DNA from: an uncultured virus (IMG/VR IMGVR_UViG_3300046675_000363)
Taxonomy: Duplodnaviria; Heunggongvirae; Uroviricota; Caudoviricetes
Length of the DNA stretch: 64,000 nucleotides
IMG/VR virus record: IMGVR_UViG_3300046675_000363
Strand: one strand, 5' to 3'
Both the position numbers and the translations under genes were made by a program. Below are positions 29,355-60,580 of this stretch, in pieces. The notes beneath the pieces are model-generated. The model did not search any database. It saw only the letters and a program-made list of their open reading frames with translations, and was not told the origin of the DNA. The number at the start of each line of letters is the position of its first letter. Position 1 is the first letter of the stretch.

Positions 29355-31889
29355 ATGCCTTTGGTGCCGGGCTTGCCCCTGAACATCCGCCAGACCAACG
29401 GCGGCGCGCCGCCGGCTATCTCGCCGGGCCTTTCCATCAAGCATGATGTGCATAATCCGCCCGGCGTTCCCGAAATGGACGACGCCGGCGCCGTCATCAA
29501 GATCGAGCATCCCGACGGCAGCGTCACTGTCTCCCTCGATGGCCGGTCGCTGGTCGACAAACCGGAACAAAACGTCGGCTGGTTCGCCAATTTGGCCGAG
29601 AAGATCAAGGAAGACGATCTCAGCGCGATCGCTGACGACCTGCTGCGCGGCATTGATGAGGATCTGTCGAGCCGCAACGACTGGATCGAGGAGCGCGCCC
29701 AGGGCATCAAGCTGCTGGGCTTCAAGATCGAAATTCCCAATCTTCAAAGCGCCGCCGATGGCGCTCCGGTCGACGGCATGTCAAAAGTGCGGCATCCGCT
29801 GCTGCAGGAGGCCGTGCTCCGCTTCCAGGCCAACGCCCGCTCCGAAATGCTGCCGACCGACGGGCCGATCAAGATCCGCGACGACGGCAGCAACTCCAAC
29901 CTTCCTCGTGACGCACTGGCGACCGCCCTTGAAAAAGACCTCAATCACTACCTCACAGTCACCGCGACCGAATACTATCCCGACACCGACAAGATGTTCC
30001 TGCTGCTCGGATTTGGCGGGACAGCCTTCAAAAAGGTCTACAATTGTCCCTTACGGAACCGACCGGTCAGCGAATCCGTCGATGCTAATGACCTCATCGT
30101 CAACGACGCTGCGACTGATCTTGCGAACGCCAAGCGTGTTACCCATCGTTCCATGATGCGGCCTTCGACGGTCAAGCGCATGCAGATTATTGGCGCTTAC
30201 CGCGACGTCGATCTCGACACGCCCAAGCCGCAGAGCCTCGACGCGGCCCAGGAAGCAGCCAAAAACCAGCAAGGGATCCAGGCCACCACCACGAGGCCCG
30301 ACGACCGTGACCGCGAGATCTACGAGTGCTATTGCGAACTCGACCTCAAAGGCTATGAGCACAAATACAAGGGCAAGATCACCGGCCTCGAAATCCCCTA
30401 CCGGGTCACCATCGATCTCTCCAGCCGCAAAATCCTTTCAATCGTCCGCAACTACGATGAAGACACGAAGGAGCTTCCTGAAGCTCGCGAAACCTTCGTC
30501 AAATATATTTTCGTGCCAGGATTGGGATTCTACGACATTGGCCTGCTCCATATATTGGGGAACACTACCAACGCTGTTACTGCTGCTTGGCGTGAGCTTC
30601 TGGATGCTGGAATGTTTAATAACTTTCCCGGCTTTCTCATGGCTGACACGGGCGCGCGTCAGAACACCAACATCTTCCGCGTCCCGCCGGGCGGCGGCGT
30701 TCTCGTCAAGACGGGCGGTCTTCCCATCAGTCAGGCGATTATGCCGCTTCCTTACCAGCCGCCGTCTCAAGCTTTGATGGCGCTGGTGCAAGACATGGCG
30801 CAGACCGGCCAGCGCAGCGGCGGCACCGCCGAACTGCCCACCGGCGAAGGCAAGGCTGACATTCCCGTCGGCACCATCCTGGCGATGATCGAGCAGGCCC
30901 AGAAGGTGCTCAACAACGTCCACAAGCGCATGCACTCGGCTCAGTCGCAAGAATTTCGCCTGCTGATACGCTGCTTCAAGGAAAACCCCAAGGCGTTCTG
31001 GCAGCGCAACAAGAAGCCGTCCGCGCCATGGGACGAGCAGAATTTCCGCGCCGCGCTCGATCTGGCCGATCTGACCCCGCAGGCCGATCCGAACACCGCC
31101 AGCCATGGCCAGCGCGTGATGAAGATCATGGCGCTCAAGCAGTTGCAGCAGCAGAACCCCACCATGTACGACCCGATCGCGATCGACACGGCGGCGCTGC
31201 AGGCGCTGGGCTGGAACAATCCGCAGCAATTCATGGCGCCGCCGGCGGCCCAGGCTGCGCCTCCTCCGCAAATCGTCCAGCAGCAGGCCGAGACGGCGGC
31301 CAAGACCCTCACCGCGCAGGCGGCGATGGTCACCGCCCAGGCGAAAGCCAAGGAATCTGGCGCGCGCGCCATGAACCTGATGGCGGAAGCCCAGACCATG
31401 GGCATGGACGAAACCGGCCAGGTCCAGCAGGATACGCCGGTCGATCAGCACCGCGCCGAATCGGAGCGCATCAAGGCCAACGCGCATGCGCAGCAGGCCG
31501 ACACCCACCAGTCCGTCATGGGGGCCAAGGCCCAGGCTGACCTGCTGAACGCCCAGACCCGCCAGCAGGAAGTTCAGTTGAAACTGGGCGAAATGTCGAT
31601 GAAGGACGCCCACCACGACGACGAGCAGCGCCTCAAGACGAGGGCGGAAACGATCGACATGGCCAAGCAGGTCATGGACAGCCACGCCGAGAACGCGCGC
31701 ACCCAGGAGGAAATGCACCACGATCACGCCCTGATGGGCCGCGAGCAGGCGCATGAGCACGAGATTGTCGAAAAGACCCACGCGCACGAGAAGGAACTGG
31801 AGGGCGTGAAGAAGACGGCGGCGATCGCGGTCGCCAAGGCCAAACCCCGTCCGAAGCCAGCCGCCAAGCCGAAGGGTAAGAGCAAATGA
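29355..31889 (+). CDS. Portal protein (P22-like, long C-terminal barrel)
   Basis: Follows terL; HPLLQEAV.FQA.A, GTAFKKVY, FYDIGL; Gln/His-rich helical C-terminus. Confidence 0.92.
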   Translation: MPLVPGLPLNIRQTNGGAPPAISPGLSIKHDVHNPPGVPEMDDAGAVIKIEHPDGSVTVSLDGRSLVDKPEQNVGWFANLAEKIKEDDLSAIADDLLRGIDEDLSSRNDWIEERAQGIKLLGFKIEIPNLQSAADGAPVDGMSKVRHPLLQEAVLRFQANARSEMLPTDGPIKIRDDGSNSNLPRDALATALEKDLNHYLTVTATEYYPDTDKMFLLLGFGGTAFKKVYNCPLRNRPVSESVDANDLIVNDAATDLANAKRVTHRSMMRPSTVKRMQIIGAYRDVDLDTPKPQSLDAAQEAAKNQQGIQATTTRPDDRDREIYECYCELDLKGYEHKYKGKITGLEIPYRVTIDLSSRKILSIVRNYDEDTKELPEARETFVKYIFVPGLGFYDIGLLHILGNTTNAVTAAWRELLDAGMFNNFPGFLMADTGARQNTNIFRVPPGGGVLVKTGGLPISQAIMPLPYQPPSQALMALVQDMAQTGQRSGGTAELPTGEGKADIPVGTILAMIEQAQKVLNNVHKRMHSAQSQEFRLLIRCFKENPKAFWQRNKKPSAPWDEQNFRAALDLADLTPQADPNTASHGQRVMKIMALKQLQQQNPTMYDPIAIDTAALQALGWNNPQQFMAPPAAQAAPPPQIVQQQAETAAKTLTAQAAMVTAQAKAKESGARAMNLMAEAQTMGMDETGQVQQDTPVDQHRAESERIKANAHAQQADTHQSVMGAKAQADLLNAQTRQQEVQLKLGEMSMKDAHHDDEQRLKTRAETIDMAKQVMDSHAENARTQEEMHHDHALMGREQAHEHEIVEKTHAHEKELEGVKKTAAIAVAKAKPRPKPAAKPKGKSK

Positions 31890-33520
31890 ACAAGCCCATC
31901 CGCGCTGCGCTCCTGACGGCCAAGGCTCTTTATGACAAGCTGCCTCATGTCGTCGGCGGCGGCGCGCCGATGGCCAAAGGCGGCGTCGTCAAGGACATTC
32001 CCCAGATCATCATGCCTGGCGATCACCCGGCCCGCATCGACACCCGGCTGGCGACGGGCGCCAAGCCGCTCGATCTGGGGCCAGGGCCGCGCACCGTCAA
32101 CATGGCGGCGCTGCGCGCGACGCCGGCGCTGTTCGACAAGAACGTCGACATCCTGCGGCATTATCCGAATGTTTCGAAAGACGCGAGCAAGCTGTCGAAC
32201 CAGGATCTGTCCGAGCATTTCATCAAGCACGTCAAGGACAACCTGCTGTGGCTACACGACCAGGTGCCCGACGAAACTCGCCAGCGATCCAAGCTGTGGT
32301 ACGACGGCGCCAACAAGCTGGCCAAGGAGTGGGCCAAGAAATACGGCGTTTCGGAGGCGTCAGCCGCCGGCGCGCTGGCCGCGCTGTCGCCGCAGAAAGA
32401 CTGGTTTCAGAACGTGTCGCTGGCCGAGCGCGTGTTGCATGCGATGAAGGGGCGCGGCAATAACGCCTACCACGGCGAAACCTTCTCGCCTGAGATGGAG
32501 GGCACTTATCGCGGCCTGGACAAGCTGGCCACCGAGAAGAACGAGCCAATCTTCCAGGCGATTAGAGGCAAGTCGCTGGGCGAAATTGATCAAATGGGTC
32601 ACATCCCTCGCGACGAGCGCGCGGTCATGAAGGCGCTGTGGATCCGGATGCACGATCAGACCCATGGCGATCCCGGCTACAAGATCGCCACGCCTGAAGG
32701 CCACTTTGGCGAAATCGCCCGCAACGCCGACGGCTCGCCATCGCGGGCGGGCTGGGGTTCGCTGGGCGAGATCGGCAAGGCGGTGCAGGCGATCGAGAGC
32801 AACGGCGAGCCGACCTTCATGAACCGTCTGATGGGCGAGCGCCACAAGGTCCGCAATTTCTACAACAATATTCTCGACCCCAACTCGCAGCATGGCGACG
32901 TCACCATCGACACCCATGCGGTCGCCGCCGGCCTACTGCGCGCGCTGTCGGGCAATTCGCTTGAGGTGGCGCACAATTTCAGCAACTACGCCGGCAAGGG
33001 CGTTCCGGGCGCTGGCGGCTCCAACGCCACCGGCGTGAACGGAACCTATCCGCTCTATGCCGACGCCTATCGCCAAGCCGCCAAAGAGCGCGGTATACTG
33101 CCTCGCGAAATGCAATCGATTACGTGGGAGGCGATCAGGGGATTGTTTCCCGACACCTTCAAAACTGATAAAAACAACGCCCATATCGACAGCATCTGGA
33201 ACGACTACAAGCACGGAAGAAAAGGAATCGACGATGTCCGCAAAGAAATCCACGACTTCGCAGGGGGGATCCGGCCACCGGAGTGGCACGACACCTCTGG
33301 AGCGCCTGATGCACCGGTTCGGGGTGCCAGTGGACCGGGACTCGTACCTGGCCCTGGATCACGCGGGCCAGCCCCCCAAGGAATTATCGGCGGAACAGGA
33401 AATGGACCTCCCGGAGCACTTGCGCCGCAAGCACCCCGGCAGTCGGGGCTGATCTTGCCGCCCGGATACGCCTGTGGCGGCGCAGTCGCCAAAGCATTGG
33501 CCGCGACACGGTCGAATTAA
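31886..33520 (+). CDS. Virion-associated protein with HhH-GPD DNA-glycosylase-like domain
   Basis: WYD, AALSPQ..W..N, KVRNFY..VTIDTHA, Y..AY..AA...PREMQSITW; flanked by MAKGGVV and YACGGAV. Confidence 0.7.
   Translation: MNKPIRAALLTAKALYDKLPHVVGGGAPMAKGGVVKDIPQIIMPGDHPARIDTRLATGAKPLDLGPGPRTVNMAALRATPALFDKNVDILRHYPNVSKDASKLSNQDLSEHFIKHVKDNLLWLHDQVPDETRQRSKLWYDGANKLAKEWAKKYGVSEASAAGALAALSPQKDWFQNVSLAERVLHAMKGRGNNAYHGETFSPEMEGTYRGLDKLATEKNEPIFQAIRGKSLGEIDQMGHIPRDERAVMKALWIRMHDQTHGDPGYKIATPEGHFGEIARNADGSPSRAGWGSLGEIGKAVQAIESNGEPTFMNRLMGERHKVRNFYNNILDPNSQHGDVTIDTHAVAAGLLRALSGNSLEVAHNFSNYAGKGVPGAGGSNATGVNGTYPLYADAYRQAAKERGILPREMQSITWEAIRGLFPDTFKTDKNNAHIDSIWNDYKHGRKGIDDVRKEIHDFAGGIRPPEWHDTSGAPDAPVRGASGPGLVPGPGSRGPAPQGIIGGTGNGPPGALAPQAPRQSGLILPPGYACGGAVAKALAATRSN
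33234..33452 (+). CDS. Nested out-of-frame small protein (72 aa), candidate inhibitor/immunity protein
   Basis: AAAGGA RBS 7 nt before ATG; protein-like LERLMHRFGVPVDRDSYLAL..PPKELSAEQEMDLPEHL while the host frame is low-complexity Gly/Pro here. Confidence 0.65.
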   Translation: MSAKKSTTSQGGSGHRSGTTPLERLMHRFGVPVDRDSYLALDHAGQPPKELSAEQEMDLPEHLRRKHPGSRG

Positions 33521-33546
33521 CCTGATACGGTGATTTAGCTTGAAGG

Positions 33547-33854: not shown

Positions 33855-35135
33855 ATGTCTGAGGACAGCAAAAAGTTTCGCGCCGCGATGCGCGCCAAGG
33901 CCGAGCGTTTGGGGACGGCCTCGTCCGCAGGCAAGGTCGACTGTTCAAGTTTTGGCGACGTCGAGCAGGATCCGATTCACGCCGATAAGGCTCAAGGCCC
34001 GCGCCCGCTATCGAGGCGAGCCTTCAAAAGCGGCGGCGCCGTCCTCGGCGCTGCGGGCTTCAAGCACGGCGGGCGCGCCGCGCGCAAAAGCGGCGGCATG
34101 GCCCAGGCTTTCGGCAACGCCATCTTCAACAGCAGCATCAAGACAGCCGACAACGATCGCGAAGGTCACGTCGAGCGCAAGGGCGGCATGAAGAGCGGCG
34201 GCAGGAGCGGCAAGTTTGGCGGCGGCGGCGCTGGGCCGATCGGCGGCCAGACTGCAATCACCAATCTGGCGGCGCAGGATGCGCAGAAGCCGATGGCGGC
34301 TGCGGCCCAGCAAGCTGGCGTTGGCGCGGACGGTCCCGTCAAAGCCACCGCCGGCGGCAGCGGCCATATGTTTGGCATGGCGAAGGGCGGTCACCCGCAC
34401 AAGGCCGAAGACGAGAAGTGCGCCAAGAAGCTGGTCGCGCATCACAAGGCTGACGGCGGCCCGCTTCCGTCACCTGCCGACGCCGGTCCGCCTCCCGGCC
34501 CGCCCGAAGCGACGCCCGCCGGCGCAGAGCAAGGCCCCGACATCAAGGAGGCGTTGCTTGAGGCTCTGATGCACGAGCACAAAAAGTCGAAGAAGCACAA
34601 GAAGGGTCCGCCGATGCCGCCTCCGGATGACGAGGAAGCGGAAGCGGCCCCGCCTCCCGACGATCAAGCCGGCCCGCCTCCGGGCCTTGGCGCCAAGCGC
34701 GGCGGCAAGGCGCGCAAGGATGGCGGCGGCGTCTACGACCCCAACGTCAAGCTCGGTCCGCGCGATGGCTACGCCAGCGGCGGCAAGACCAAGGGCAAGA
34801 CCAACATCAATATTATCATTGGCCAACCTGGTGGCGCCTCTCCTCCCGATGCCGGCGGCGGACCTCCTCCCCCGCTGGCAGGGCCGCCGCCGGGGCCGGG
34901 GGCGGTTCCTGTGCCGCCTCCCGCGCCCCCGCCTGGCTTGCCTCCGGGCGGCGCGATGGGCGGACCGCCTCCGGGCGCGCCGCCGCCAATGCCGATGCCG
35001 CCTCCGGGCGGGCCGATGGGCCGCAAGCACGGCGGTCGAGCGTATCCGATTGAGCATGCTTCTGGCGGCGGCAAGGGCCGTCTGGAGAAAATCAAGGCAT
35101 ATGGGCTGGTTCCGCCCAAGGGGAGGATGGGGTGA
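33855..35135 (+). CDS. Gly/Pro/Lys-rich disordered virion protein with many xxxGG motifs
   Basis: FKSGG, FKHGG, RKSGG, MKSGG, MAKGG, KADGG, AKRGG, RKDGG, YASGG, RKHGG, HASGG; TNINIII. Confidence 0.85.
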   Translation: MSEDSKKFRAAMRAKAERLGTASSAGKVDCSSFGDVEQDPIHADKAQGPRPLSRRAFKSGGAVLGAAGFKHGGRAARKSGGMAQAFGNAIFNSSIKTADNDREGHVERKGGMKSGGRSGKFGGGGAGPIGGQTAITNLAAQDAQKPMAAAAQQAGVGADGPVKATAGGSGHMFGMAKGGHPHKAEDEKCAKKLVAHHKADGGPLPSPADAGPPPGPPEATPAGAEQGPDIKEALLEALMHEHKKSKKHKKGPPMPPPDDEEAEAAPPPDDQAGPPPGLGAKRGGKARKDGGGVYDPNVKLGPRDGYASGGKTKGKTNINIIIGQPGGASPPDAGGGPPPPLAGPPPGPGAVPVPPPAPPPGLPPGGAMGGPPPGAPPPMPMPPPGGPMGRKHGGRAYPIEHASGGGKGRLEKIKAYGLVPPKGRMG

Positions 35136-35417: not shown

Positions 35418-36146
35418 ATGGTCTTGCGTCATGTTGTAATTCGCGGAGTGGCCGATATCGGTGACGTGGTTCACCCCGCTGATCCCGGTTTTGGGCGTCC
35501 TGGCGGCGGCTGGAGTCCCGTTGACCCCGGCTATGATCGCCCCAGCGGCGGCCATCCTGATCAAGGCCTCCCCGGCTACGGCCACCCCGATCAAGATCTG
35601 CCTGGCAGGCGCCCGCGTCCCGACCAGGGTTTGCCTGGATACGGGCACCCGGATCAGGGCCTTCCCGGCTACGGGCATCCTGATCAAGGTCTTCCTGGCT
35701 ATGGTCATCCGGATCAAGGACTACCTGGTTATGGCCACCCCGATCAGGGTCTGCCTGGCTTGCCGGTTTATCCCAGTCAGGGACCGATTCTTCCAGCCGC
35801 TCCCGGCCATCCGATCCCCGTGCCGCGTGTGCCGGTGGTGCAGGTCATCCCGCTGCCCGAAGGCGCGGTGCTTCCGACTGAGCCTCCGCATCGCCCTGGC
35901 AGGATCGCCATCGTGGTCGAGGGCGAAACCAAGGCTGTCGGCTGGCTGCAGGGTTCGGATGACCTTCCGGTCGCCGCGCCCAAGGGCGAAGCGCCTGTCC
36001 CCGGCGGTCACTGGGTGGCGGTCGAAGTCAATCCGCAGGCAAGGCCCAAGAAATGCAGCGACGGCAGCGATGGCGTCGGCAAGACTGGCTTTGCCTGGGT
36101 GTTCGAAGTGAAGCCCGACTTTGGCACGGAGCCGACGTCGGTCTGA
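35418..36146 (+). CDS. Pro/Gly-rich protein with GHPDQGLPGY decapeptide repeats
   Basis: CAGGAG RBS; 7 repeat units at about 35550-35762. Confidence 0.85.
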   Translation: MVLRHVVIRGVADIGDVVHPADPGFGRPGGGWSPVDPGYDRPSGGHPDQGLPGYGHPDQDLPGRRPRPDQGLPGYGHPDQGLPGYGHPDQGLPGYGHPDQGLPGYGHPDQGLPGLPVYPSQGPILPAAPGHPIPVPRVPVVQVIPLPEGAVLPTEPPHRPGRIAIVVEGETKAVGWLQGSDDLPVAAPKGEAPVPGGHWVAVEVNPQARPKKCSDGSDGVGKTGFAWVFEVKPDFGTEPTSV

Positions 36147-36521: not shown

Positions 36522-36908
36522 ATGGCCTTTGCTTCGATGTTGCACGAGGAAGATCCGGTCCAGAAGGTGCTGAAGGAGCTTGGCGACCTGTCAGGGGTCG
36601 AAATTTTCCACAATCAATTGCTCGCTGCGGTCTACATCAGGCCCGATAAAACCAAGAGCGGCCTGTTCCTGGCCCAGCAGACCCTCAACGAGGATCGTTT
36701 TCAGTCCAAATTGGGCCTTGTCGTCAAGAAAGGCCCGCAGGCCTTCATCAGCGGCGGCGAATGGCAGTTCCCTGACATCGAACTGCATGACTGGATCCTG
36801 TTTCGCCCCTCGGACGGCTGGAACATCACCGTCAATGGCGTCCTGTGCCGCATCCTGACCGACACGGCCATCAAGGGGCGCATTGCGACGCCCGATCTCA
36901 TCTGGTGA
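36522..36908 (+). CDS. groES: GroES-like co-chaperonin
   Basis: KTKSGLFL mobile loop, GLVVKKGPQAF, DWILF, RILTD..I.G. Confidence 0.85.
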   Translation: MAFASMLHEEDPVQKVLKELGDLSGVEIFHNQLLAAVYIRPDKTKSGLFLAQQTLNEDRFQSKLGLVVKKGPQAFISGGEWQFPDIELHDWILFRPSDGWNITVNGVLCRILTDTAIKGRIATPDLIW

Positions 36909-36913
36909 GCGAC

Positions 36914-37771
36914 ATGGCGAAAGATCCGAATAGTATCCCGGCCTTCGACCCGAACACCGACTGGGAGCACGGCGGCAAGGAAGAGCGCGATCCACTGGTC
37001 GAACTGCGGGCGCAACTCGATCGCGAGCGCGCCGCGCGCATCCAGGCTGAAAATCGGGCCAACGAATACGCGACCACCGCGCACGGCGCTCAGGTTGAAG
37101 TGGCCGACAACGAGCTTAAACTGGTGGTCAGCGCGATCGAGCGGGTCAAGGAGCACACCAACGCCCTGAAAGCCGCTTACGCCGAGTCGTTACGCAACCA
37201 GGATTACGACAACGCAGCCGAATTTCAGGTTCAGCTTGCCGACAATGCAGCGGCGCTGCGGCAGCTTGAAAACGGCAAGGCGTCAATGGAGGCGCAGCCC
37301 AAGCCTGTGGCGCCGCAGCCGATCAAGATGAGCATCGATCCCGTCGAGGAACTGGCGAGCCAACTGACGGCGAAGTCCGCCGCCTGGGTCCGCGCCCATC
37401 CCGAATGCGCCCGCGATCCGAAGCTTTACGCCAAAATGGTCGCGGCCCACAATATTACGGTTTCGCGCGACATCGATCCCGACACGGACGACTATTTCCG
37501 CTCAGTGGAGGCGCTCGTTTACGACAGGCCCGCAGATCGCGAACGCGATCTCGACACTGGCGCTGATGATCCGCAGGCCGCGTCCGCCAAGGCTGCGCCG
37601 CAGCGTGAATCGGCCCCGCCGGCGGCTGCGCCTGTCAGTCGCGGATCGAGTGGCAGGAGCGCCACGCTGACGCCGCTTGAGCGCGAATACGCCGAGATTT
37701 CAGGCATGTCCGAGCAGGACTACGCCAAGGCGCGTGACGACATTCGCAAGAACCAGGGCCGCCTGCATTAA
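36914..37771 (+). CDS. Capsid scaffolding protein (putative)
   Basis: Coiled coil, W...HP, DPDTDDYF, C-terminal TLTPLEREYAEISGMSEQDYAK. Confidence 0.75.
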   Translation: MAKDPNSIPAFDPNTDWEHGGKEERDPLVELRAQLDRERAARIQAENRANEYATTAHGAQVEVADNELKLVVSAIERVKEHTNALKAAYAESLRNQDYDNAAEFQVQLADNAAALRQLENGKASMEAQPKPVAPQPIKMSIDPVEELASQLTAKSAAWVRAHPECARDPKLYAKMVAAHNITVSRDIDPDTDDYFRSVEALVYDRPADRERDLDTGADDPQAASAKAAPQRESAPPAAAPVSRGSSGRSATLTPLEREYAEISGMSEQDYAKARDDIRKNQGRLH

Positions 37772-40529: not shown

Positions 40530-40775
40530 ATGGCAAAAGCTGGCAAGAACCCCGCTTTCGATAGCGGCAACAAGGATGTCAAGGAAGAGGCCGAAGAGAA
40601 GGGCGGCGGCAAGCAGACCAAAAAGCGCGTAGGCGGGCCGGTTGGCGCGTCTGCTCATTCGCATGGCGGTCGAGCGGCTCGCAAGAGCGGCGGCTCCTGC
40701 GAAAACCATCTGTTCTCGTCAGCCAATGCGGGTTCGCCCGCGCCTGGCCGGAAGATGATGTCGAAGAAGGTCTGA
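40530..40775 (+). CDS. Small basic protein with xxxGG motifs
   Basis: KRVGG, HGGRAARKSGG; GGAGG RBS. Confidence 0.8.
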   Translation: MAKAGKNPAFDSGNKDVKEEAEEKGGGKQTKKRVGGPVGASAHSHGGRAARKSGGSCENHLFSSANAGSPAPGRKMMSKKV

Positions 40776-51955: not shown

Positions 51956-54127
51956 ATGCCGCATGCAACTCTCAAGATCGAACCCGGCGTCAACACTAAC
52001 GAGACGCCTGTTCTCAACATGGCGGGCATCGCGGCCTGCAATTTGATCCGTTTCAAGTATGACCCGCACAATATGGGCTTGGTCGAGAAACTGGGCGGCT
52101 GGTCGAAATTTTACAGCGGCGCTTTCTCAAATGTCGTCCGCCACATCTATGCATGGCAGGAAATTGATAGCGACAAGTTTGCAGTCGTCGGGATGGAGGG
52201 CCTCGGTGGCGTCACGCTGCTGCCCGCCATTCCCAAGCTAGATCCTGTTACGGGCGCCAACACGGGTTTTTACGTAGCCGACGTCAACAACGTAAAAGAC
52301 CTGACGCCTGTTTTCAGGCACTCGAATTTGACGCCGCAGTTTCACACGACCATCAATTCTCCGCTGGTGGACATCAACGACACAACTCTCGTCGGCATCC
52401 ACACCACTGATTCGGTCTACATCGCGACCCACATCGCTGTCGGCGGCATTGTCTTGTTCGGTCAGTACGCCATCCAGAAAACGCTGTCCTTCACTGAGTT
52501 TCTGATCCAGTCCTCTACGCTCCTCGGCCTGCCCAATCCTGCGCTATCAACGGCGACCACGACGTCAGGCGCGCCAGGGTTGCCGATCTTCACTCCGATC
52601 GTGAGCAGCTACGAGGTGACGGTCACTCTGCCCAACCACGGCTATCAGGTTGGCGACGTGTTTCCCCTTCTTGTGCCAGTGACACTGGCCAGCACCGTCC
52701 TCCAAATTGGCGAGCACGAGGTTCGCGCTGTCGCTGACGCCAACAATTTCACCATCCTCGCGGATGATGTGTCTAGCTCCGCAACGCCAGTAACGCTGAA
52801 CGGCGGCAACGTGCGCCTGATCTACAACATTGGCGGCGTTCCCGCCAAGATCGTCAGCGGCTATGGCGCCGGCGGCTACGGCGAAGGCGGTTACGGCACT
52901 GGCGGCACGACTGTGGTTCCGACGGGCGACGTCGTCAACGCTACCGACTGGGCCTTCGACAATTGGGGCAGCGTCCTGCTCGCCAGCCCTGAAAATCAGG
53001 TGGTCAATAATATTCCCACGTCGGGGATCTACCAGTGGACGCCTGACGTAGGCACGTCGGTTCTCGCGTTGATTGCGCAGGCGCCGCCCTGCAATGACGG
53101 CTTTTTCGTCGGCATGCCGCAGCGCCAGATCATCGCGTGGGGGTCGAGCTTCAGCGGCATTCCAGATCCGCTGCTGATCCGCTGGTGCGACGTCAACGAC
53201 TACACGGCTTGGGCGGCGACGATCACCAACCAGGCCGGCTCTTACCGCCTGCCGAAAGGCTCCAAGATCGTGGCCGGCATCCAGGGGCCGCAGCAGGGCA
53301 TCATCTTCACCGACCTGGCCGTCTGGGCCATGCAGTATGTCGGCCAGCCTTACATCTATTCGTTTAACGAAATTGGCAACGGTTGCGGTCTGATCGGGCA
53401 GAAAGCGGCGACGTCGCTCAACGGCACGATTTACTGGATGAGCCAGCGCCAGTTCTTCCAGCTTTCGGGCGGCGGCGTCGCGCCGATCCCCTGCCCCGTT
53501 TGGGACGTCGTCTTTCAAAATATCGATCGGCGCTATTATGACAAGATCCGCGTCGCGCCCAACTCGATGTTCAACGAGATCGCCTGGTATTATACGTCCA
53601 ACAGTTCACCAGACGGCGAGAACGACGCCTATATCAAGTTCAACTACCTGTTGAACACCTGGGACTATGGCTTGATGGCGCGCTCGGCCTGGATCAACCA
53701 GAGCGTCGTCGGGCCGCCGCTCGCTGCGGGCCGCAGTGTTTTCGACGGCAAGATCCGCCTGTACCAGCATGACATCGCCCTCGACGCCGATGGCCAGCCG
53801 ATGGATTCGTGGTTCTCTACGGGCTATTTCTCCATGTCGGACGGAGACAGCAAAGTCTTTGTCGATGAAATATGGCCTGATTTTAAGTGGGGGCCTTACA
53901 ACAATCCGAACCAGAACGCCGGCGTCAAACTGACCTTCACGGCCAAGGATTTTCCAAGCCAGCAGCCGCAGATGTCCAATGCGTTTACGTTCAAGGTTGA
54001 TTCGACCTACGTCACGCCGCGCCTGCGCGGACGCTTGATGCAGGTCACGATAGGAAGCAATGACGTTGGATCGTTCTGGCGCGTGGGCGGCATGCGCTAT
54101 CGGCTGGCCCCAGACGGGAAATACTGA
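51956..54127 (+). CDS. Tail hub/nozzle protein (P22 gp10 / tubular B-like) with inserted beta domain
   Basis: EKLGGW, WAFDNWG, DPLLIRWCD, NQAGSYRL..GSKI, PIPCPV, R.RGR, PDGK end. Confidence 0.85.
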   Translation: MPHATLKIEPGVNTNETPVLNMAGIAACNLIRFKYDPHNMGLVEKLGGWSKFYSGAFSNVVRHIYAWQEIDSDKFAVVGMEGLGGVTLLPAIPKLDPVTGANTGFYVADVNNVKDLTPVFRHSNLTPQFHTTINSPLVDINDTTLVGIHTTDSVYIATHIAVGGIVLFGQYAIQKTLSFTEFLIQSSTLLGLPNPALSTATTTSGAPGLPIFTPIVSSYEVTVTLPNHGYQVGDVFPLLVPVTLASTVLQIGEHEVRAVADANNFTILADDVSSSATPVTLNGGNVRLIYNIGGVPAKIVSGYGAGGYGEGGYGTGGTTVVPTGDVVNATDWAFDNWGSVLLASPENQVVNNIPTSGIYQWTPDVGTSVLALIAQAPPCNDGFFVGMPQRQIIAWGSSFSGIPDPLLIRWCDVNDYTAWAATITNQAGSYRLPKGSKIVAGIQGPQQGIIFTDLAVWAMQYVGQPYIYSFNEIGNGCGLIGQKAATSLNGTIYWMSQRQFFQLSGGGVAPIPCPVWDVVFQNIDRRYYDKIRVAPNSMFNEIAWYYTSNSSPDGENDAYIKFNYLLNTWDYGLMARSAWINQSVVGPPLAAGRSVFDGKIRLYQHDIALDADGQPMDSWFSTGYFSMSDGDSKVFVDEIWPDFKWGPYNNPNQNAGVKLTFTAKDFPSQQPQMSNAFTFKVDSTYVTPRLRGRLMQVTIGSNDVGSFWRVGGMRYRLAPDGKY

Positions 54128-54129: not shown

Positions 54130-54540
54130 ATGACGGCTTCGCTCACAGACATCCTTTCCGCCGCCAAAAACATCGCCCAGGCGATCAATGACGCGGCGCG
54201 CGCTTATGTCGGCGTCCAGGGGTCGCAAATACAAGTGGCGATGGGCGCCAATTCGCAAGTTACGGTTGGGCCGGGGCGCATGGCCATGCTCAGTGTGATC
54301 ACTGCTGGTAGCACCGTCGGAACTATTCACGATTCCGCCACCATCACCAACGCTGCTCTCGCCAATCAGATTGCCGGCATTCCGATGACAGTCGGCATTT
54401 CTTTTGTCAATTTGCCGTTCAACAACGGCCTCGCCATCAAGCCAGGCACGGGCCAGGTGGTGGCGGTCAGCTATTCGACAGGCGCCGCCGCCGGGGATCA
54501 GACCGTTTCCTCTGAAGGCAGACGGGCGAAAGGACGCTGA
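54130..54540 (+). CDS. Virion protein
   Basis: ASLTDILSAAKN..; beta-rich C-terminus. Confidence 0.75.
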   Translation: MTASLTDILSAAKNIAQAINDAARAYVGVQGSQIQVAMGANSQVTVGPGRMAMLSVITAGSTVGTIHDSATITNAALANQIAGIPMTVGISFVNLPFNNGLAIKPGTGQVVAVSYSTGAAAGDQTVSSEGRRAKGR

Positions 54541-54541: not shown

Positions 54542-55234
54542 ATGCCACTGATCAAATCAGGGTCTAAGGAGGCCGTCAGCCAGAACATCAAAACGGAGAT
54601 GGGCGCCGGCAAGCCGCAGAAGCAGGCGATTGCTATCGCCCTCGATGTCGCGCGGCGCGCGCGAGCGGAGGGCGGCGGCATGCCGACGCTCTCAAAACTA
54701 GGTTCGCCGCCTGATGTTCCAGAGACGGTTCACGCGCATCTGTCGGCCAAGGTCCACACCGGTCCGATCCACAGCGCGGTCGCAGGCCGCACCGACCACC
54801 TGCCCGTTCACGTTCCGAGCGGCAGCTATGTCATCCCTGCCGACATCGTGTCGGGCATGGGCGAAGGAAACACCAATGCCGGATTTAAGGTCATTAAACG
54901 AACTTTCGCGGGGCTTCCATATGGCCCCAAGTCCGACCAGCCCTATGGACATAAGGGAGGCCCTTATGGAAGCGGATCGGCTCCGTATAACCAGGCAGGC
55001 GGCCCGTATGGCGAACCGCTTGTTGGCGACAGACATGCGCGCGGTGGCAAAACTGGATCCGATGTGAAGGTCGTCGTGGCGGGCGGCGAGTACACCTTGA
55101 CGCCTGAAGAGGTGATGGCGGCGGGCGATGGCGATATCGATCGCGGCCACCGCGTCCTCGATGATTTCGTCAAACAGATGCGCGGCCACATCGTCAAGAC
55201 GATGTCGAAGCTGCCTGGACCGAAGCGAGACTAG
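54542..55234 (+). CDS. Protein with KQAIAIAL leader and duplicated G(E/S)Y(V/T) domain; candidate maturation protease
   Basis: MPL.K..S....NI.TEM.AGKPQKQAIAIAL; GRTDHLP..VPSGSYVIPADIV..G.G and VAGGEYTLTPEEV..G.G. Confidence 0.75.
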   Translation: MPLIKSGSKEAVSQNIKTEMGAGKPQKQAIAIALDVARRARAEGGGMPTLSKLGSPPDVPETVHAHLSAKVHTGPIHSAVAGRTDHLPVHVPSGSYVIPADIVSGMGEGNTNAGFKVIKRTFAGLPYGPKSDQPYGHKGGPYGSGSAPYNQAGGPYGEPLVGDRHARGGKTGSDVKVVVAGGEYTLTPEEVMAAGDGDIDRGHRVLDDFVKQMRGHIVKTMSKLPGPKRD

Positions 55235-55238: not shown

Positions 55239-55742
55239 ATGAGCGAGATACAAGTGAGATACGGCGTTCCAGCCGACGTGCATAATTTCATGGACCTGAC
55301 GGCCATGTGCGCGGAAGAGAACGGCCTGCTCGCGGTGAGCAGGAGGAAAGTGCTGGAGGAGGTATGGGCCAGCCTGAACTGGGACCACGGCGTGATCGGC
55401 GTGGTCGAGGGCGACAGCGGCATCCTGGAGGCCGGCATCCTGCTCCGCGTGGACACGACGCCCTACAGCGTCGAGGAAGTCCTGTGCGAGCGCGCGATCT
55501 ACGTGCGGCCAGAATTTCGTAAAGTGCAGCGCAGCCTCTATCAGGGCGGACGCGCCAGCTACCTATGCGAGTTCGCCAAGAACGCCGCCATGCGCCTCGA
55601 ATTACCCCTTCTAATCAGTATTTTGTCAACGCACCGCGCTGCTGGTAAGGTGAGACTTTACGAGCGGCATTTCGGAACGCCGGCGGGCGCCTATTGGCTT
55701 TGGAACGCGAAGACGGGCCATAAGCAAGAAGCTGCGGAGTAG
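55239..55742 (+). CDS. GNAT-fold acetyltransferase-like protein
   Basis: IYVRPEFRK motif A; position just before ejection proteins, as in other podoviruses. Confidence 0.7.
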   Translation: MSEIQVRYGVPADVHNFMDLTAMCAEENGLLAVSRRKVLEEVWASLNWDHGVIGVVEGDSGILEAGILLRVDTTPYSVEEVLCERAIYVRPEFRKVQRSLYQGGRASYLCEFAKNAAMRLELPLLISILSTHRAAGKVRLYERHFGTPAGAYWLWNAKTGHKQEAAE

Positions 55743-55747
55743 ACGTC

Positions 55748-58700
55748 ATGGGCGGCAAGACACAGCAGGCTTCCTCTCAGGTCACGATACCTCCGGAAGT
55801 TTTGGCGCGCTACAACGCGGTCAATGCGCAGGCGCAGCAGACTGCCGCCACGCCCTTCCAGCAATATTCGAGCGACCCGAACGCCTTCGTGGCGCCGCTG
55901 ACGGCTGCGCAAAACATGGGCCTCCAGCAGACTGCGAACTACGCCAACGCCGCCCAGCCGGGCATCAATAGCGCGATGGACATGACGCAAGGAGCGATGG
56001 GATCGGCCAATCCGTGGGAACTGACTGGCGACAAAATCCAGCAATACATGAACCCCTACACCCAGAACGTCACTGGCCAGATGACAAATCTGATGAACCA
56101 GCAGTTCGGGGCGCAGCAGTCGGGCCAGACTGGCAATGCGATCAAGAGCGGCGCTTTTGGCGGCGATCGCGCTGGCGTTGCGGCGGCGAATCTTTCCGGG
56201 CAGCAATCGCTGGCTTATGGCAACGCTATGGCGCCGGTGCTCCAGCAGGGCTACAACACGGCGCTCCAGACCGCCACCGGCCAGCAGGCGATCGATCTGC
56301 AGGCCCAGCAGGCCAACCTGGCGCGGCAAATGCAGGGCGCAAACCAGTACGGCCAGTTGGCCGGCATGGGTCAGCAATATGGCCTCGCCGGCGCGCAGGC
56401 TTTGATGGGCGCGGGCCAGGTCCAGCAGCAGACCCAGCAGGCCGGTCAAACGGCGCTCTACAACCAATTCCAGCAGCAGCAATCCTATCCGTTCCAGGTT
56501 GGACAGTATCTCGCCAATATCGCGGAAGGCACCGGTTCGCTGTCGGGCCAGACGTCGAACACCACGCAGCAAGCGCCGTTCTTCTCCGATCGCAAATTGA
56601 AGGAAAACATCAAGCGAATTGGCACCGCCAAGAACGGCCTGCCGATCCACAGCTTCAATTACAAGGACGATCCCGAAAAGCTGTCTCGCCTCGGCTTCAT
56701 GGCTGACGAGGTCGAGAAGAAGCATCCGGAGGCGGTGGGCCTCGCCGGCGGCTACAAGACCGTCGACCACGAGCAGGCGATGAAGAGCGCCGGCGGCAGC
56801 GTCACTGACTTCGACCAGGGACGAGCCTACGATCGCGGCGGATACGACCTCGGCGGCGCTCCCAGCACCTATGATCCATCCTGGCAGTCTGTCACCCAGC
56901 GGCACATGGCGGGGCTGCAGGGCCAGCCGCAGCAGGGCAGCAGCCTGTACGGCGGCAAGCGGCGCCACGTTCCGGAAGGATCGGGGGGTCGCTACAGCCT
57001 GCCGAATGCGCCGACCATGCCGGGGGCAAGGCCGTCAGGCTTGAGCCAGGCTGTTGGAACAGCGCAGGCGACTGTGGGCCTCGGCCAGTCGCTTGGTGAC
57101 GCCTATGACAAATACACCGGCAAGGACAAGACTGCCGCGCCCGCCGCGCCCGCCGCGCCTGCCGCGCCTGTAGTGGCGGCGAAAGCGCCCGGTACGCCTG
57201 GCACACCCGATCAGCCCGACATCATGAATTTGAGCCGTGGCGGTCTGGCTGGAGGCGGCGAGCCGCCCATGCCGGCTATCGCCGCCGCCTCGATGGCTGG
57301 AAGGCCGGCGGAAGGCGTACCCGACGTCACCAAAACAACGACTGCTTATGACGAGGGCCTCGCGAAAGCGCAGGATGCGCAAGTTCGCGCAAATGCGCTT
57401 CAAGACGCGGATCGCGCGCAGGCGTCAGCGGCTGGCATGTCGTTCAGGCCTGATTGGGATAACCCGATGCTGGCGCAGAGCGATCTGGCCCGCTCGATGG
57501 GCGTGTACAAGACGCTGAACGGCTACAATGATCCGACGCATGGCGGATCCTACCTTGGTTTCGATCGCGGCGGCTACGCGACAGACGGCGGCGTGAACAG
57601 CAGCGCGGATGTGCTCAAGACCCCCGATCCGAACGCCACGCAAGACACGACCCAGATGAATATTCCGGACAAGGAGTCGCATTTCAAATTGCCCGACCCG
57701 CCCAAGCCGCCAGGCGGCGCTGGAAAGAGCGGAGCGGGCCAGGCTTTGGGTGCCGCCAAGTCGCTTATGGGCCTCGCTTCGCTCATTCCCGGCGTCGGCG
57801 CTGTCACCGGCCCGCTCGGCGCCGTAATGGGCGCAGGCGAGGCGCTGGCCGGCGCTGCCGGCGGCATGATGGTTGCGGGCGGTCGCCGCCGCAGGGGCAA
57901 GCGCAAGGGCCTGTCTGTCGGCGGTCAGGGCGAAGGCGTCGATTTCATGAGCAAGACGCGGCAGGTTGATCCTGAAATAGCGGACATTGCGGACTCGTGG
58001 AGCAGCCCTCATGACGATACTGGCAATCAGGGCGCTGGCTCCGATAACATGAGCGAATATGAGCAGGGGCGTAGGTCTGAGCATCAGGGTTCCGTCAATA
58101 ACGAAACGGCGCCGCTGACCACGAGCGCGAACACTGGTCTTGCTGGTCAGGGCGTGGATTACATGAGCCAAGAGCGGCAGGGGCGCGAGCCGGAACTCAG
58201 AAGCTCCGTCCACCCTGCCATGTCGGCGTCGAATGCAACGCCTGAAGAACAAAATGCGTATCTTATGCAGCATGTCCCGCGTGAGCGTTTGCATGAAGTG
58301 ATGACGCCTGCTGCCTTGGCAAAAGCGTATCCGCCCACGGAAGCGCCCGCGCGCGGAGAGCTATCTCCGACATGGAAACCCGCCGATGTGGTGATCCCCA
58401 CTCCTGGCGGCGGCGAATCTCCGCTGGCAACCGATCTGGGCGGCACGTCGCGCCCGCTTCAGCATGGGGCCGAGCCGATTGCTGACGTCGATGCCGGCGG
58501 CGCTCCTACGGTGGGCCTCGCCGCTGGCGAGCGCGGATCTGGTTTTGCCGAGAAGCCTAACCTTGGAAGCGCGGAATTTCCCACTGCGGCGTTTCCCAAC
58601 GCCACCGCAACGCCTGAAGAAGCCGCCGCTGCGCTCAGAGAAGCCACCTCGCCTGAAGGACGGGCGCACACGCAAGCAGTGCTGGCGAAGAGGGTTGCCG

Positions 58701-60580
58701 ATCTTCAGGCGACCAGGGAAGCGCGCGAAAACGAAGAATACGGAAATAAGTCGCTGCTGCGGAAGGTGGGCGAAGCTACTGGCATGATAGCGCCCACCCG
58801 TGGCCTGGTGCCTGACGCGGAAAAGGAGGCGGCTGCTCATCTCAACGCCCCCGTCTCTCCTCTGGACAATGATCCGGAGACGCGCGTTGCCGGCCCGAAC
58901 ACCACGATCATTCCGTCGAACACCAACGATAAGGTCGCTGCACCCGCGCCTGGCTTGGGGGCTGCTGAAACTCCTACTGCAGTTAAGACTGCCACTGAGG
59001 CTCCCGACTCCTTTACGCCAAAAGTCACTCCAGGCGTCGGCGCTGGCGCCTTCCCGATGACGGTCAGCCCGACCGGCGTCACTGCCCCTGCTGCCGCCGC
59101 GCCCGCTCGCGAACCGGATTTGCAATACCTGGCGGAACACAAGCAGTTCCCGCTGTCGCCAGCGCCGATCGGCGGCGATGTTCGCGCTCCCGCTGCGGCC
59201 CCCGCCCCCGCTCCCGCAAGGGTTGCGCCTCGTGGCGGCGTTGCGCCGACTGCTCCTGCTGGCGGGGCGGCCAGAGCGCCGACGCCTCCGAACGACGCCA
59301 ACGGCAATCCCATCGAACAGTTCTTTGGCGGCATCGCTCGCGGCGTGGACGGCGCGCTCCACAATGTTGCCGATTTCTTCACGGGCGGCGCCCGCAATGT
59401 CGGCAACACCATCAACAGCGCGGGCCAGGTGGTCAACAGGGCGGGCCAGGCTATCGGCCAGACCGTCAACAGCGCGGGCCAGGCTATCGGCAATGAAGTC
59501 CACGGGCGCTTCAACGAATTGATGAATGGCTCGCCAAAGATGATGTCGCCTGGCGGTAATTTTCACGCCCAAGGCGTCGATCCGCGCCTGGTCAGCAACC
59601 TCACGGAAGCCACAAGGGGTCTGCCGCAAGGCTGGCATGCGCAGTTCGAATCGGGTTTCCGCCAAGGCGATAAGCGCCAGCATGGCAGGGGCAACGCGGT
59701 TGATGTCGCGCTCTATAATGAGAAGGGCGAGAGGCTCGCCAACTATCAAGACCCGACCACCTTCCGCGCCTATGAGAAATTTGCGCAAGATTTCAGGGCG
59801 GCGCAGCAGCACAACAACCCCGAACTGAACAGCGCCACGCGCTGGGGCGGTTATTTCAGCGGCAAGACGGAAGCGCAAGGTGGGCCATATGGCGCGGTCG
59901 ATCTGATGCACTTCGACCTCGGCGGGCGGCAGGGCCTCGGCATGCTCGGCGGCTCCTGGGAAGGCGGCATGACGGCGAAACAGCATGCGCTGTTCCCCGG
60001 CGCTACGTCTGTCGGCATGGGCCAGCGCCCGCCTGAAGGCTATTCGACGGCAGTGTCCACTGACAGCACTGGCGCCAGAACCGATGCGACAGGGCGCGTT
60101 TCGCCAGGCTATAGCAATGGCGTTCAGGGCATCCTCTCGCAGGAGGAAGCTTTTCGTGGGCAGGCGTATTTTGACAAGAACGCCAGCGGCAGCGGGGGCC
60201 ACTGGGCTGTCGGCTACGGCTCCCATAAGATGCGAGATCCGAACACTGGCGAAATGCGCGAAGTTCGGCAGGGCGACACCATCACGCCACAGGGCGCCCA
60301 GCAGGATATGACGCATCGCATGCAAAACGAGTACCTTCCGGCGGCGGTGAGAAAAGCCGGCGGGGTGGATGTCTGGCGCGCCCTGCCGCGCAATGTCCGC
60401 GACGGCCTCGGCTCGACCATCTGGAACTATGGCCACCTGCCCGATCCGGTCGCCGCTGCTATCAGACACGGCGGTGGCCCCAACGAGATTGCAAATGCAG
60501 TTGCGGGACTTGGCGGCAAGACGCCAGCGGCTCGCGCTCGCCGCGCTCGTGAAGCCGCGCATATTCGTGGTGGAGGTTGA
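55748..60580 (+). CDS. Ejection/DNA-transfer polyprotein with S74-like, M15 peptidase-like and GH24 lysozyme-like domains
   Basis: Gln-rich YMNPY..GAFGGDR N-terminus; SDRKLKENI..GFMADEVE; SGFR..QHGRGNAVDV..RWGG..MHFD; EEAFRGQAYFD..VGYG..WNYG..RRAREA. Confidence 0.85.
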   Translation: MGGKTQQASSQVTIPPEVLARYNAVNAQAQQTAATPFQQYSSDPNAFVAPLTAAQNMGLQQTANYANAAQPGINSAMDMTQGAMGSANPWELTGDKIQQYMNPYTQNVTGQMTNLMNQQFGAQQSGQTGNAIKSGAFGGDRAGVAAANLSGQQSLAYGNAMAPVLQQGYNTALQTATGQQAIDLQAQQANLARQMQGANQYGQLAGMGQQYGLAGAQALMGAGQVQQQTQQAGQTALYNQFQQQQSYPFQVGQYLANIAEGTGSLSGQTSNTTQQAPFFSDRKLKENIKRIGTAKNGLPIHSFNYKDDPEKLSRLGFMADEVEKKHPEAVGLAGGYKTVDHEQAMKSAGGSVTDFDQGRAYDRGGYDLGGAPSTYDPSWQSVTQRHMAGLQGQPQQGSSLYGGKRRHVPEGSGGRYSLPNAPTMPGARPSGLSQAVGTAQATVGLGQSLGDAYDKYTGKDKTAAPAAPAAPAAPVVAAKAPGTPGTPDQPDIMNLSRGGLAGGGEPPMPAIAAASMAGRPAEGVPDVTKTTTAYDEGLAKAQDAQVRANALQDADRAQASAAGMSFRPDWDNPMLAQSDLARSMGVYKTLNGYNDPTHGGSYLGFDRGGYATDGGVNSSADVLKTPDPNATQDTTQMNIPDKESHFKLPDPPKPPGGAGKSGAGQALGAAKSLMGLASLIPGVGAVTGPLGAVMGAGEALAGAAGGMMVAGGRRRRGKRKGLSVGGQGEGVDFMSKTRQVDPEIADIADSWSSPHDDTGNQGAGSDNMSEYEQGRRSEHQGSVNNETAPLTTSANTGLAGQGVDYMSQERQGREPELRSSVHPAMSASNATPEEQNAYLMQHVPRERLHEVMTPAALAKAYPPTEAPARGELSPTWKPADVVIPTPGGGESPLATDLGGTSRPLQHGAEPIADVDAGGAPTVGLAAGERGSGFAEKPNLGSAEFPTAAFPNATATPEEAAAALREATSPEGRAHTQAVLAKRVADLQATREARENEEYGNKSLLRKVGEATGMIAPTRGLVPDAEKEAAAHLNAPVSPLDNDPETRVAGPNTTIIPSNTNDKVAAPAPGLGAAETPTAVKTATEAPDSFTPKVTPGVGAGAFPMTVSPTGVTAPAAAAPAREPDLQYLAEHKQFPLSPAPIGGDVRAPAAAPAPAPARVAPRGGVAPTAPAGGAARAPTPPNDANGNPIEQFFGGIARGVDGALHNVADFFTGGARNVGNTINSAGQVVNRAGQAIGQTVNSAGQAIGNEVHGRFNELMNGSPKMMSPGGNFHAQGVDPRLVSNLTEATRGLPQGWHAQFESGFRQGDKRQHGRGNAVDVALYNEKGERLANYQDPTTFRAYEKFAQDFRAAQQHNNPELNSATRWGGYFSGKTEAQGGPYGAVDLMHFDLGGRQGLGMLGGSWEGGMTAKQHALFPGATSVGMGQRPPEGYSTAVSTDSTGARTDATGRVSPGYSNGVQGILSQEEAFRGQAYFDKNASGSGGHWAVGYGSHKMRDPNTGEMREVRQGDTITPQGAQQDMTHRMQNEYLPAAVRKAGGVDVWRALPRNVRDGLGSTIWNYGHLPDPVAAAIRHGGGPNEIANAVAGLGGKTPAARARRAREAAHIRGGG

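Follow-up and report, generated by a model that had tools for sequence, protein, structure and literature searches.

What is a short motif ending in Gly-Gly (GG) doing in several unrelated internal proteins of one phage, and what is the role of the small protein that carries it twice? These questions are raised by a 64,000-nucleotide (nt) stretch of DNA from an uncultured virus, IMG/VR record IMGVR_UViG_3300046675_000363, which we call the window and which holds the late genes of an SU10-like podophage of ~69 kb. An original prediction held that the gene at 54542..55234 (genes are named here by their first nucleotide) encodes a free-standing GG-specific protease or a sorting factor, and that cargo destined for cutting or loading inside the head is labelled by the motif. 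Our answer keeps the motif and changes the role of the gene. The motif, which is better written [K/R/H/F/Y/M]-[A/K]-x-G-G-x-[V/I/A/T], is very probably a real functional element of internal proteins, and 54542 is probably no protease but a module for carrying or ejecting cargo. The best explanation overall, and one to which we would give an even chance, is that the motif is a junction in internal proteins and 54542 a motif-bearing carrier module; that the motif is a cleavage site is a tentative step further, which we rate a little below even.

Is the motif really there in excess? Every string quoted in the original prediction is found in the translations of the genes concerned: MAKGG at residue 29 and YACGG at residue 528 of 31886, bracketing its domain as had been said, KRVGG, HSHGG and RKSGG in 40530-40775, RAEGG and HARGG in 54542-55234, and KSAGG, YDRGG, LSRGG and FDRGG in 55748-60580, and the count of at least 11 copies in 33855-35135 is borne out by 13 regular-expression matches at 11 distinct sites. 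When that prediction's own expression is set against 2000 shuffles of each protein, an enrichment beyond composition is clear for 33855 (13 matches against 1.84 expected, with 0 of 2000 shuffles as high) and is marginal for the other proteins taken singly: 31886 has 2 matches against 0.73 (p 0.16), 40530 has 2 against 0.42 (p 0.06), 54542 has 2 against 0.47 (p 0.08) and 55748 has 7 against 2.69 (p 0.02). The 28 late proteins together hold 30 matches against 13.5 expected. Because this expression had been fitted by eye, we also derived a position matrix from the homologues of 33855, of which 116 supplied 1088 GG contexts, with the window protein and its three closest relatives excluded. At a score of at least 8 the matrix finds 15 matches, against 1.8 expected, in the late proteome of 10,954 amino acids (aa). 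At a score of at least 7 in all six frames of the window, 16 of the 35 matches lie in frame in four late genes (two in 31886, ten in 33855, two in 40530 and two in 54542), the remainder being mostly off frame or in open reading frames (ORFs) that overlap recognised genes on the opposite strand. The sites of 55748 ([YF]DRGG, KSAGG) are not scored by the matrix, which gives 1 match against 0.93 expected. The closest annotated relative, the metagenomic record MW202675, has an identical gene order, and at a score of at least 8, 20 of its 24 matches lie in annotated genes and 18 of the 24 in the virion module, that is, in post-portal proteins, the 33855 homologue and the ejection cluster.

For the motif as a functional element, conservation is stronger evidence than these shuffle statistics. 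The window is the first 64 kb of its record, and the second ~69 kb copy in that record, which we used as a sister genome, retains all motif sites. Two other interpretations of the motif were considered and rejected. One was a signal at the level of DNA, such as a recombination site; the codons are merely the favoured GGC GGC. The other was mimicry of the mobile loop of GroES, and thus GroEL binding; the KSAGG shared with that loop is genuine, but the three hydrophobic residues that follow GG in the loop are unlike the motif, which has one hydrophobic position only, and E. coli GroES reads ETKSAGGIVLTG and scores -5.0 on the matrix.

The protein richest in the motif is 33855 (33855..35135, + strand), a basic, Gly/Pro-rich protein of 426 aa with an isoelectric point (pI) of 9.8, which consists mostly of motif copies of the form [FYRMH]-K-x-G-G-[KR]-[AVT]; its N-terminus is conserved, and it also has a strand that reads GKTNINIII and a tail that reads GGGKGRLEKIKAYG. 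It has 1386 homologues at E<=0.001 among 8000 candidates scored; no Pfam family is found in any of the 120 listed, and the first 40 of these contain 5-14 regular-expression matches each. The family has a pI of 9.6-11.3 (median 10.24), a consensus of [R/K/M/F/Y]-K-x-G-G-[R/K]-[A/V/T] and an alignment in which the GG columns of the motif are invariant and glycines make up most of the invariant columns, and a member is present in all five complete relatives. The small basic protein 40530 (40530..40775, +; 81 aa, pI 10.2) keeps its motif block unchanged in a sister-genome orthologue that is 76% identical, and its positional counterpart in MW202675 (58 aa) is without the motif. The two proteins are otherwise unrelated and share a run of 11 identical residues, HGGRAARKSGG, at aa 71-81 of 33855 (34059-34097) and aa 45-55 of 40530 (40662-40694), which is also kept in the sister genome. 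A further observation concerns a cassette of ~45 aa (GGLYANIHAKQERI.HGS.E.MRKPG..GAPT..AF..S.RTAKA.GG) that lies bead-like between motif pairs, with a motif at each end, in P0241, P0242, P0245, P0259 and P0267 as well as in some 33855 homologues; many fusions have it, and a weak pointer from the ESM Atlas leads to DUF6321.

Proteins of this kind invite a second reading, the main rival to ours and in our opinion a somewhat unlikely one, in which the motif would be an uncut handle that docks internal proteins to the portal, the scaffold, the inner face of the capsid or the packaged DNA, so that they are taken up and afterwards exit together with the genome, with 33855 as a multivalent hub or a DNA-coating basic protein. 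The uniformly basic, disordered and multivalent nature of the 33855 family is what one would expect of such a hub, as are an R or K at the +1 position in 44% of motif copies and the presence of the motif in unrelated internal proteins. The acidic variants YADGGEV and RAEGGEVD fit DNA binding poorly, and the receptor would be a hypothetical one. Cutting and docking are inseparable by sequence alone; to the placement of the motif and its parallels elsewhere we return below.

What, then, is 54542? It begins with a helical hairpin (aa 1-43; 54542..54676, +) that matches phrog_2423 at E 1.5e-18, has its helices at residues 9-21 and 26-42 with a predicted local distance difference test score (pLDDT) of 85-96, and ends in motif 1, RAEGG, at aa 41-45. 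Module 1 (aa 80-122; 54779..54907, +) comprises the invariant block VAGRTDHLPVHVPSGSYVIPADIVSGMGEGN and is modelled by AlphaFold2 as a beta-hairpin with two helices (core pLDDT 91-96). Motif 2, HARGG, at aa 165-169 is followed by module 2 (aa 173-222; together 55034..55207, +), which consists of VKVVVAGGEYTLTPEEVMAAGDGD and a long helix and has a pLDDT of 86-97. The internal duplication that had been proposed for this gene is confirmed by hhalign, which aligns aa 80-119 with aa 167-207 over 40 columns (probability 85.7%, E 5.5e-6) and sets VAGRTD of the first copy opposite RGGKTG of the second, so that the motif forms the leading edge of the repeated unit. In an alignment of 31 family members, G168 and G169 never vary, and conservation is 90% or more at A166 and G44, all within linkers that otherwise vary freely; many polar residues are invariant, namely H77, S78, D85, H86, E183, D198, H203 and D207.

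The family is large and anonymous. At E<=0.001 a word-indexed search returns 3109 relatives and an exhaustive search 7326 representative clusters, and of 50,697 phage records MW202675 alone has a full-length homologue. No Pfam or NCBIfam family matches 54542 at E<=0.01, the LPD families being included in the Pfam check; its only PHROGs matches, phrog_2423 and phrog_11341, are both unannotated; a sequence search of the PDB with the 54542 and 33855 alignments gave just low-complexity or chance matches; and in the ESM Atlas the 30 nearest clusters are all unnamed viral proteins, while a weak lead to a crAss cargo protein (0.78) and a DUF2213 structural row both fall below the bar. AlphaFold2 produced a poor model with 31 sequences (pLDDT 65) and a better one of the core with 97 diverse sequences (pLDDT 80, predicted template modelling score 0.69), in which two predicted beta-hairpin/two-helix modules are separated by a disordered PYG-rich linker. 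Foldseek found 0 PDB matches at E<=0.001 for this core model, and VIA-align reached a best Z of 3.4, with 0 of 48,161 chains at Z>=5; for the full-length model at pLDDT 65, Foldseek found nothing and VIA-align just generic helical hairpins matching residues 8-47 (best Z 5.0). A complex prediction for the 54542 core with residues 40-125 of 33855 scored 0.08 (mark 0.32) in a run made without controls, and counts neither for nor against binding. The hairpin also exists by itself in cultured phages: for example, ORF47 of the T7-like Ralstonia phage RSB1 (L083:1501-1674) has 57 aa, is only a 54542-type hairpin and a tail, and ends in KQRKD, resembling the LPGPKRD end of 54542.

Our reading of the function turned on what the core is attached to. 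The exhaustive search found proteins of 300-1500 aa that have the core (profile positions about 60-224) at their C-terminus. The best 150 representatives comprise 92 that resemble the window gene, 57 in which over 120 aa precede a C-terminal core and 1 with a downstream extension; the window's own copy is a short form, its upstream part being just the 43-aa hairpin. Fifty-four of the longer forms were scanned, and the 17 with a Pfam family carry ART-PolyVal (7), NUDIX (3), GNAT (3, one of them under its cut-off), InPase (2), DUF7178 (1, in P0342) and GP88 (1), and 49 matrix matches fall in the 20,563 aa that lie ahead of the core in the 57 fusions. Two features of polyvalent or cargo proteins are seen here, fusion to effector domains, in the longer relatives of the core, and encoding among the late virion genes: in 80 related viral loci the 54542 homologue follows the nozzle gene in 75 of 75 cases and precedes the ejection protein in 55 of 55. 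The anatomy, conservation, fusions and gene order are direct observations, and a core that forms the C-terminal end of effector-bearing proteins is better understood as a module travelling with cargo than as an enzyme acting on it.

Could 54542 nevertheless read xxxGG in other proteins, as their protease or as a trans-acting sorting factor? We think this very improbable. Its many invariant polar residues would suit an enzyme, a core fold that has no match in the PDB leaves room for a new one, and each of the 5 complete relatives has members of both this family and the 33855 family; this co-occurrence is confined to one phage clade, and follows from shared ancestry. No profile or fold of a protease was detected in this small duplicated hairpin-helix module, which bears the motif itself, twice, and is fused in cis as a C-terminal tail in those 57 of 150 representatives. 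The free-standing protease thus finds no support in profile, PDB or fold searches, and the idea of sorting survives only as that of a carrier domain in cis, not of a factor in trans. Among the curated profiles scanned, none of a maturation or GG protease family (S78/U35, S77, S49/ClpP-like, assemblin-like or C5/C39/C48-like) matched 54542. The remark that no canonical prohead protease is recognisable agrees with our general library scans, which covered 29 late ORFs, 37 early ORFs (taken greedily, longest first, from GC-rich DNA, for which reason some are probably not genes) and 11 ORFs in the 5 kb past the window and detected no protease family, a result that also suits a docking handle. The only proteolytic domains seen are S74 self-cutting chaperones, in two fibres and, unusually, in the ejection protein; a CHAP-like ORF past the window, a weak match that falls below its cut-off (E 0.0017), probably encodes a lysis enzyme rather than a papain-like cutter. 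If the motif is cut, we infer that the catalyst is not a dedicated phage protease.

Where the motif sits says more about what it may do. The post-portal cargo protein 31886 (31886..33520, +) has a DUF7178 domain (PF23802, E 2.8e-29), on which our literature searches found nothing, and a motif near either end, at aa 29-33 (nt 31970-31984, matrix score 14.6) and aa 528-532 (nt 33467-33481, score 10.7). Its sister orthologue is 94% identical, and several of the few substitutions fall directly after each GG (31970-31990, 33467-33490), where VVKD becomes AALAP and AVAK becomes MIDK; the residues before GG are the same. DUF7178 cargo of this type is absent from all five complete relatives, in which the ORF directly 3' of the portal gene encodes 1060-2212 aa with 2-5 matrix matches and carries ART-PolyVal in 3 of 5 (one under the Pfam cut-off), PcfJ in 2 of 5 and GP88 in 1 of 5. 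The cargo differs and the motif is kept, so the post-portal slot is one of variable cargo with a constant motif. In the three large post-portal proteins of MW202675 the motif again lies between recognisable parts and a few residues from the C-termini, and in 15 fusion proteins with Pfam domains only 3 of 76 motifs fall inside a domain, the gaps from a domain to its flanking motifs being 3-374 aa; two of three NUDIX domains have a motif 3-7 aa away on both sides. Processing sites are more typically found where this motif lies, exactly at the joints between domains and 5-12 residues away from the ends of the chain, than docking handles are.

Joints can, of course, be simply flexible. The motif might have no specific reader at all and be a helix C-cap, a Gly-Gly hinge and a strand start that together help a chain to thread through the tail channel, its conservation being only apparent and due to composition and shared cassette ancestry. 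That the motif often follows an amphipathic helix of the form A-L-x-x-A-R, that enrichment is weak outside 33855 and that the favoured glycine codon is used with no DNA-level signal are all in keeping with such a hinge. It is harder to see why GG should be invariant, with conserved flanks (basic or aromatic at -3, A or K at -2), in linkers that vary freely across thousands of sequences, or why 33855, a protein without domains to join, should need about ten copies, and we consider a plain hinge unlikely.

Is there a precedent for cutting at such a site? The tape-measure proteins of two phages bear on this. In bacteriophage T5, pb2 has a single [KRH]-A-x-G-G in its 1219 aa, FVPRAEGGMMYPGVSYQMGEHGTEVVTP, and the available text of the report on its processing gives a cut 'after R1127', mapped by mass spectrometry (PMC10038345). 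That cut falls between R and A of the motif (PR/AEGG, the slash marking the cut), upstream of GEHGTEVVTP, so that the pattern of our motif is, as far as that text goes, a mapped cut site in T5, which speaks against a handle that stays uncut. In phage lambda, the tape measure gpH loses ~14 kDa from a C-terminal Gly-rich region, the site and catalyst being stated as unknown in the available part of PMC12617516. The lambda strings given in the original prediction are correct: KFHFATGG at aa 730-737, with FATGG at 733-737, HRGEFVFT with GEFV at 754, and RGYATGGYV at aa 777-785, with YATGG at 779-783. A common pattern, x-A-x-G-G followed by G-E-[FYH]-x-V/F-[IFT], can be read in 54542 (HARGG...AGGEYTLTP), lambda (FATGG...GEFVFT...YATGG) and T5 (RAEGG...GEHGTEVVTP), and one of the same type in the tape measure of Gordonia phage GMA7 (FATGG...NGEHVITA) and at the C-terminus of gp82 of Pelagibacter phage HTVC027P (ETGG...NNEFVFTA), the last two being leads from weak tblastn matches to module 2 and both reading x-A/T-x-G-G, a spacer and S-N-G/N-E-H/F-V-I/F-T-A. 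By pattern only, T5 and lambda suggest that the motif may mark cuts. Of the proposal that it marks cut or loaded cargo, what stands is that its bearers are of cargo type, that it lies at domain junctions and that the T5 cut falls inside it; cutting in our phage is a matter of inference.

We can now set out the explanation that we prefer. The motif would be carried by particle-internal proteins that leave through the tail, and its bearers would be the variable post-portal cargo, the basic and disordered 33855, the small basic 40530 and the ejection cluster after the nozzle gene. 54542 would be one of these proteins, a hairpin and two modules with one motif after the hairpin and another before module 2, and its core would be the part that brings cargo joined to it into the particle or sends it out by way of the tail. 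The motif itself may be a junction at which chains are cut after assembly or delivery, as in the T5 tape measure, either by a host activity or by one built into the motif-module unit. Reportedly, to go by its title, work by Zweig and Cummings in 1973 dealt with host involvement in T5. The built-in alternative can be taken further, into a proposal that we regard as quite improbable: the motif and the hairpin module (x-A-x-G-G ... G-E-[FYH]-V) might be an assembly-triggered self-cutting cassette common to siphophage tape measures and podophage cargo and ejection proteins, with the 54542 core as the catalytic or templating half and bare motifs cut in trans inside the confined head.

Several findings weigh against the explanation we prefer. 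Without 33855, the late proteins hold 17 regular-expression matches against 11.6 expected, which is marginal, and two of the matrix matches in MW202675 fall in a helicase. The AlphaFold2 model has a pLDDT of 46-53 at motif 2 and is silent on how the motif is read, and 37 of the 54 longer forms scanned have no Pfam family. The argument for cutting, being one of analogy, draws on the T5 link, which is one mapped site and a pattern match, and the profiles lend it little: a hidden Markov model (HMM) of module 2 has no match in T5 pb2 and scores 4.0 bits on lambda gpH, in the right place (aa 734-771) and within the range of shuffles. GMA7 and HTVC027P gp82 do score 18.2 and 18.3 bits, against at most 6.9 in 1000 shuffles, but both had been preselected by tblastn (E 4 and 0.09). 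Were every motif cut, 33855 would fall into a dozen peptides and the core of 54542 would come apart into its two halves, and the presence of 54542 and the cargo in the virion is presumptive. In addition, Pfam has no family that covers the motif-module unit in any of these proteins, and a word-indexed search for longer proteins with module 2 gave 7 close fusions and no tape measure.

The last motif bearer is the 1610-aa ejection or internal virion protein 55748 (55748..60580, +), whose N-terminal ejection domain matches phrog_6121 and phrog_4287 (DNA ejection protein) and whose C-terminal cell-wall-enzyme region matches an endolysin family (phrog_465) at aa 1311-1392. Between these lie an S74-like domain (aa 280-330, nt 56585-56737; PF13884, 28.5 bits against a cut-off of 22) and a motif cluster (aa 346-370, nt 56783-56857), with further GG sites elsewhere. 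Relatives of 55748 have [FY]-A-x-G-G motifs directly after the S74-like domain, so that KSAGG and YDRGG in the window are derived forms. Peptidase_S74 is an intramolecular chaperone that cuts itself, and in fibres it stands at the very end of the chain and is cut off; here, with a start of the SDRKLK type, it lies inside the ejection protein with 1280 residues after it, which suggests that the protein is split at about aa 280.

As for the wider setting, the late operon runs on the + strand from 29355 onward and contains the marks of an SU10-type virion module. It opens with the portal gene (29355..31889, +; PF23899 SU10_portal E 1e-19, phrog_1216), which has no motif match and is followed by the cargo genes, and goes on through a GroES-like co-chaperonin (36522-36908, +; Cpn10 E 5.5e-4, phrog_3188), kept in MW202675 and adjoining on the 5' side the presumed scaffold (36917-37771, +), which has no family match and is named from its position and a coiled-coil counterpart in MW202675. 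There follow the major capsid protein (39129-40043, +) and the adaptor (41861-42544, +; PF24175 E 1.1e-8); the operon also includes fibres ending in S74 chaperone domains, and the nozzle-like structural protein (51956-54127, +; phrog_3287 E 3.4e-62) precedes the cluster of internal and ejection proteins that includes 55748-60580. Immediately 5' of 54542 is a conserved gene for 136 aa (54130..54540, +) that lies upstream of the 54542 homologue in 56 of the 80 loci and has no family match. On the 3' side, 55239..55742 (+) accompanies the homologue in 71 of 71 loci with enough sequence and has no Pfam match; its counterpart in MW202675 is annotated as a 'putative acetyltransferase', and a Rosetta-stone link between it and 54542 was considered and dropped, as it is unlike the GNAT domains of the fused forms.

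A few observations on the record itself may be of use to others. Its full 138,254 bases are two related, colinear ~69 kb genomes set end to end and not one 138 kb phage; nucleotide identity between the two is 77-94% over long aligned blocks, and the record has the look of two strains joined during assembly. At 27215-27922, between the genes for terminase and portal, is encoded a 235-aa protein with a Tad2-like (Thoeris anti-defence 2) domain (E 1.7e-20), and at 35418-36146 a 242-aa ORF of putative gene status and no family contains GYGHPDQGLP five times in tandem. About 1.3 kb past the end of the window (L090:3343-3786, - strand) is a homologue of the cell-cycle regulator GcrA (E 2.2e-12), which hints at an alphaproteobacterial host, and near it are a MazG-like ORF and the weak CHAP-like ORF already mentioned.

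Why should this matter beyond one uncultured phage? If the explanation we prefer is true, a very large unannotated family (those 7326 representative clusters) would be a shared C-terminal module of injected phage effectors, and the 54542 core a handle for finding cargo proteins in uncultured phages. The junction motif would be common to tail-exiting proteins and would predict where polyvalent cargo splits into working units, and in lambda gpH the cut would be predicted at FATGG or YATGG and would need the GG pair and the Glu of GEFV. The self-cutting cassette, if it existed, would explain the cutting of both lambda gpH and T5 pb2 and provide a protease-free release of polyvalent cargo domains inside the particle or the host. 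A new GG-protease gene, the idea from which all this began, is not supported. The cleavage of tape measures and polyvalent cargo are already known. Neither the junction motif, nor a description of the 54542 core as a carrier-type domain, nor a link of one to the other turned up in the literature searched, where queries on motif strings, glycine-rich motifs and tape-measure cleavage returned nothing relevant to the motif.

How does all this compare with known systems? The proteases of adenovirus and African swine fever virus, and the double-glycine leader peptidases, are papain-like cysteine proteases that cut after G-G, and they share with our phage a short G-G-ending motif at the borders of structural or cargo proteins; they differ in that none is detectable in this genome and in that the sole mapped analogous cut, that of T5, lies three residues before G-G. 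The SPP1 gp7/Mu F (MuF) proteins are, in the available text of PMC5512222, another virion-associated domain near portal or head genes with variable effectors fused to it, but there is no sequence or profile similarity, and the 54542 core is C-terminal and is encoded among the ejection genes after the nozzle, not after the portal. The tape measures T5 pb2 and lambda gpH resemble our proteins in being expelled through the tail and in having [R/F/Y]-A-x-G-G and then, within 10-20 residues, G-E-[HFY]-x-x-x-V/F-T; they are siphophage tape measures, however, and not podophage head or ejection proteins, homology to them is undetected at the profile level, and the downstream element of T5 pb2, taken in the available text of PMC10038345 for a zinc-peptidase motif that is muralytic, contains a His that the 54542 family does not conserve. 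A further parallel is offered by the polyvalent proteins (Iyer, Burroughs, Anand, de Souza, Aravind 2017), described in the accessible text as proteins of several domains whose genes adjoin those of the virion and which are presumed to be packaged and injected, with release of their domains proposed to occur via embedded zincin-like metallopeptidases or assemblin-like peptidases (PMC5512222). Such peptidases were not found in the window proteins, the fusions or the relatives' post-portal ORFs scanned. The junction motif seems undescribed in the main text of that paper, as far as it was available, and its supplements, which list unnamed LPD domains, might already hold the 54542 core. The likeness lies in the cargo: the ART-PolyVal, InPase, NUDIX, GNAT and PcfJ domains known from polyvalent proteins are found again in fusions to the 54542 core or in the post-portal ORFs of relatives.

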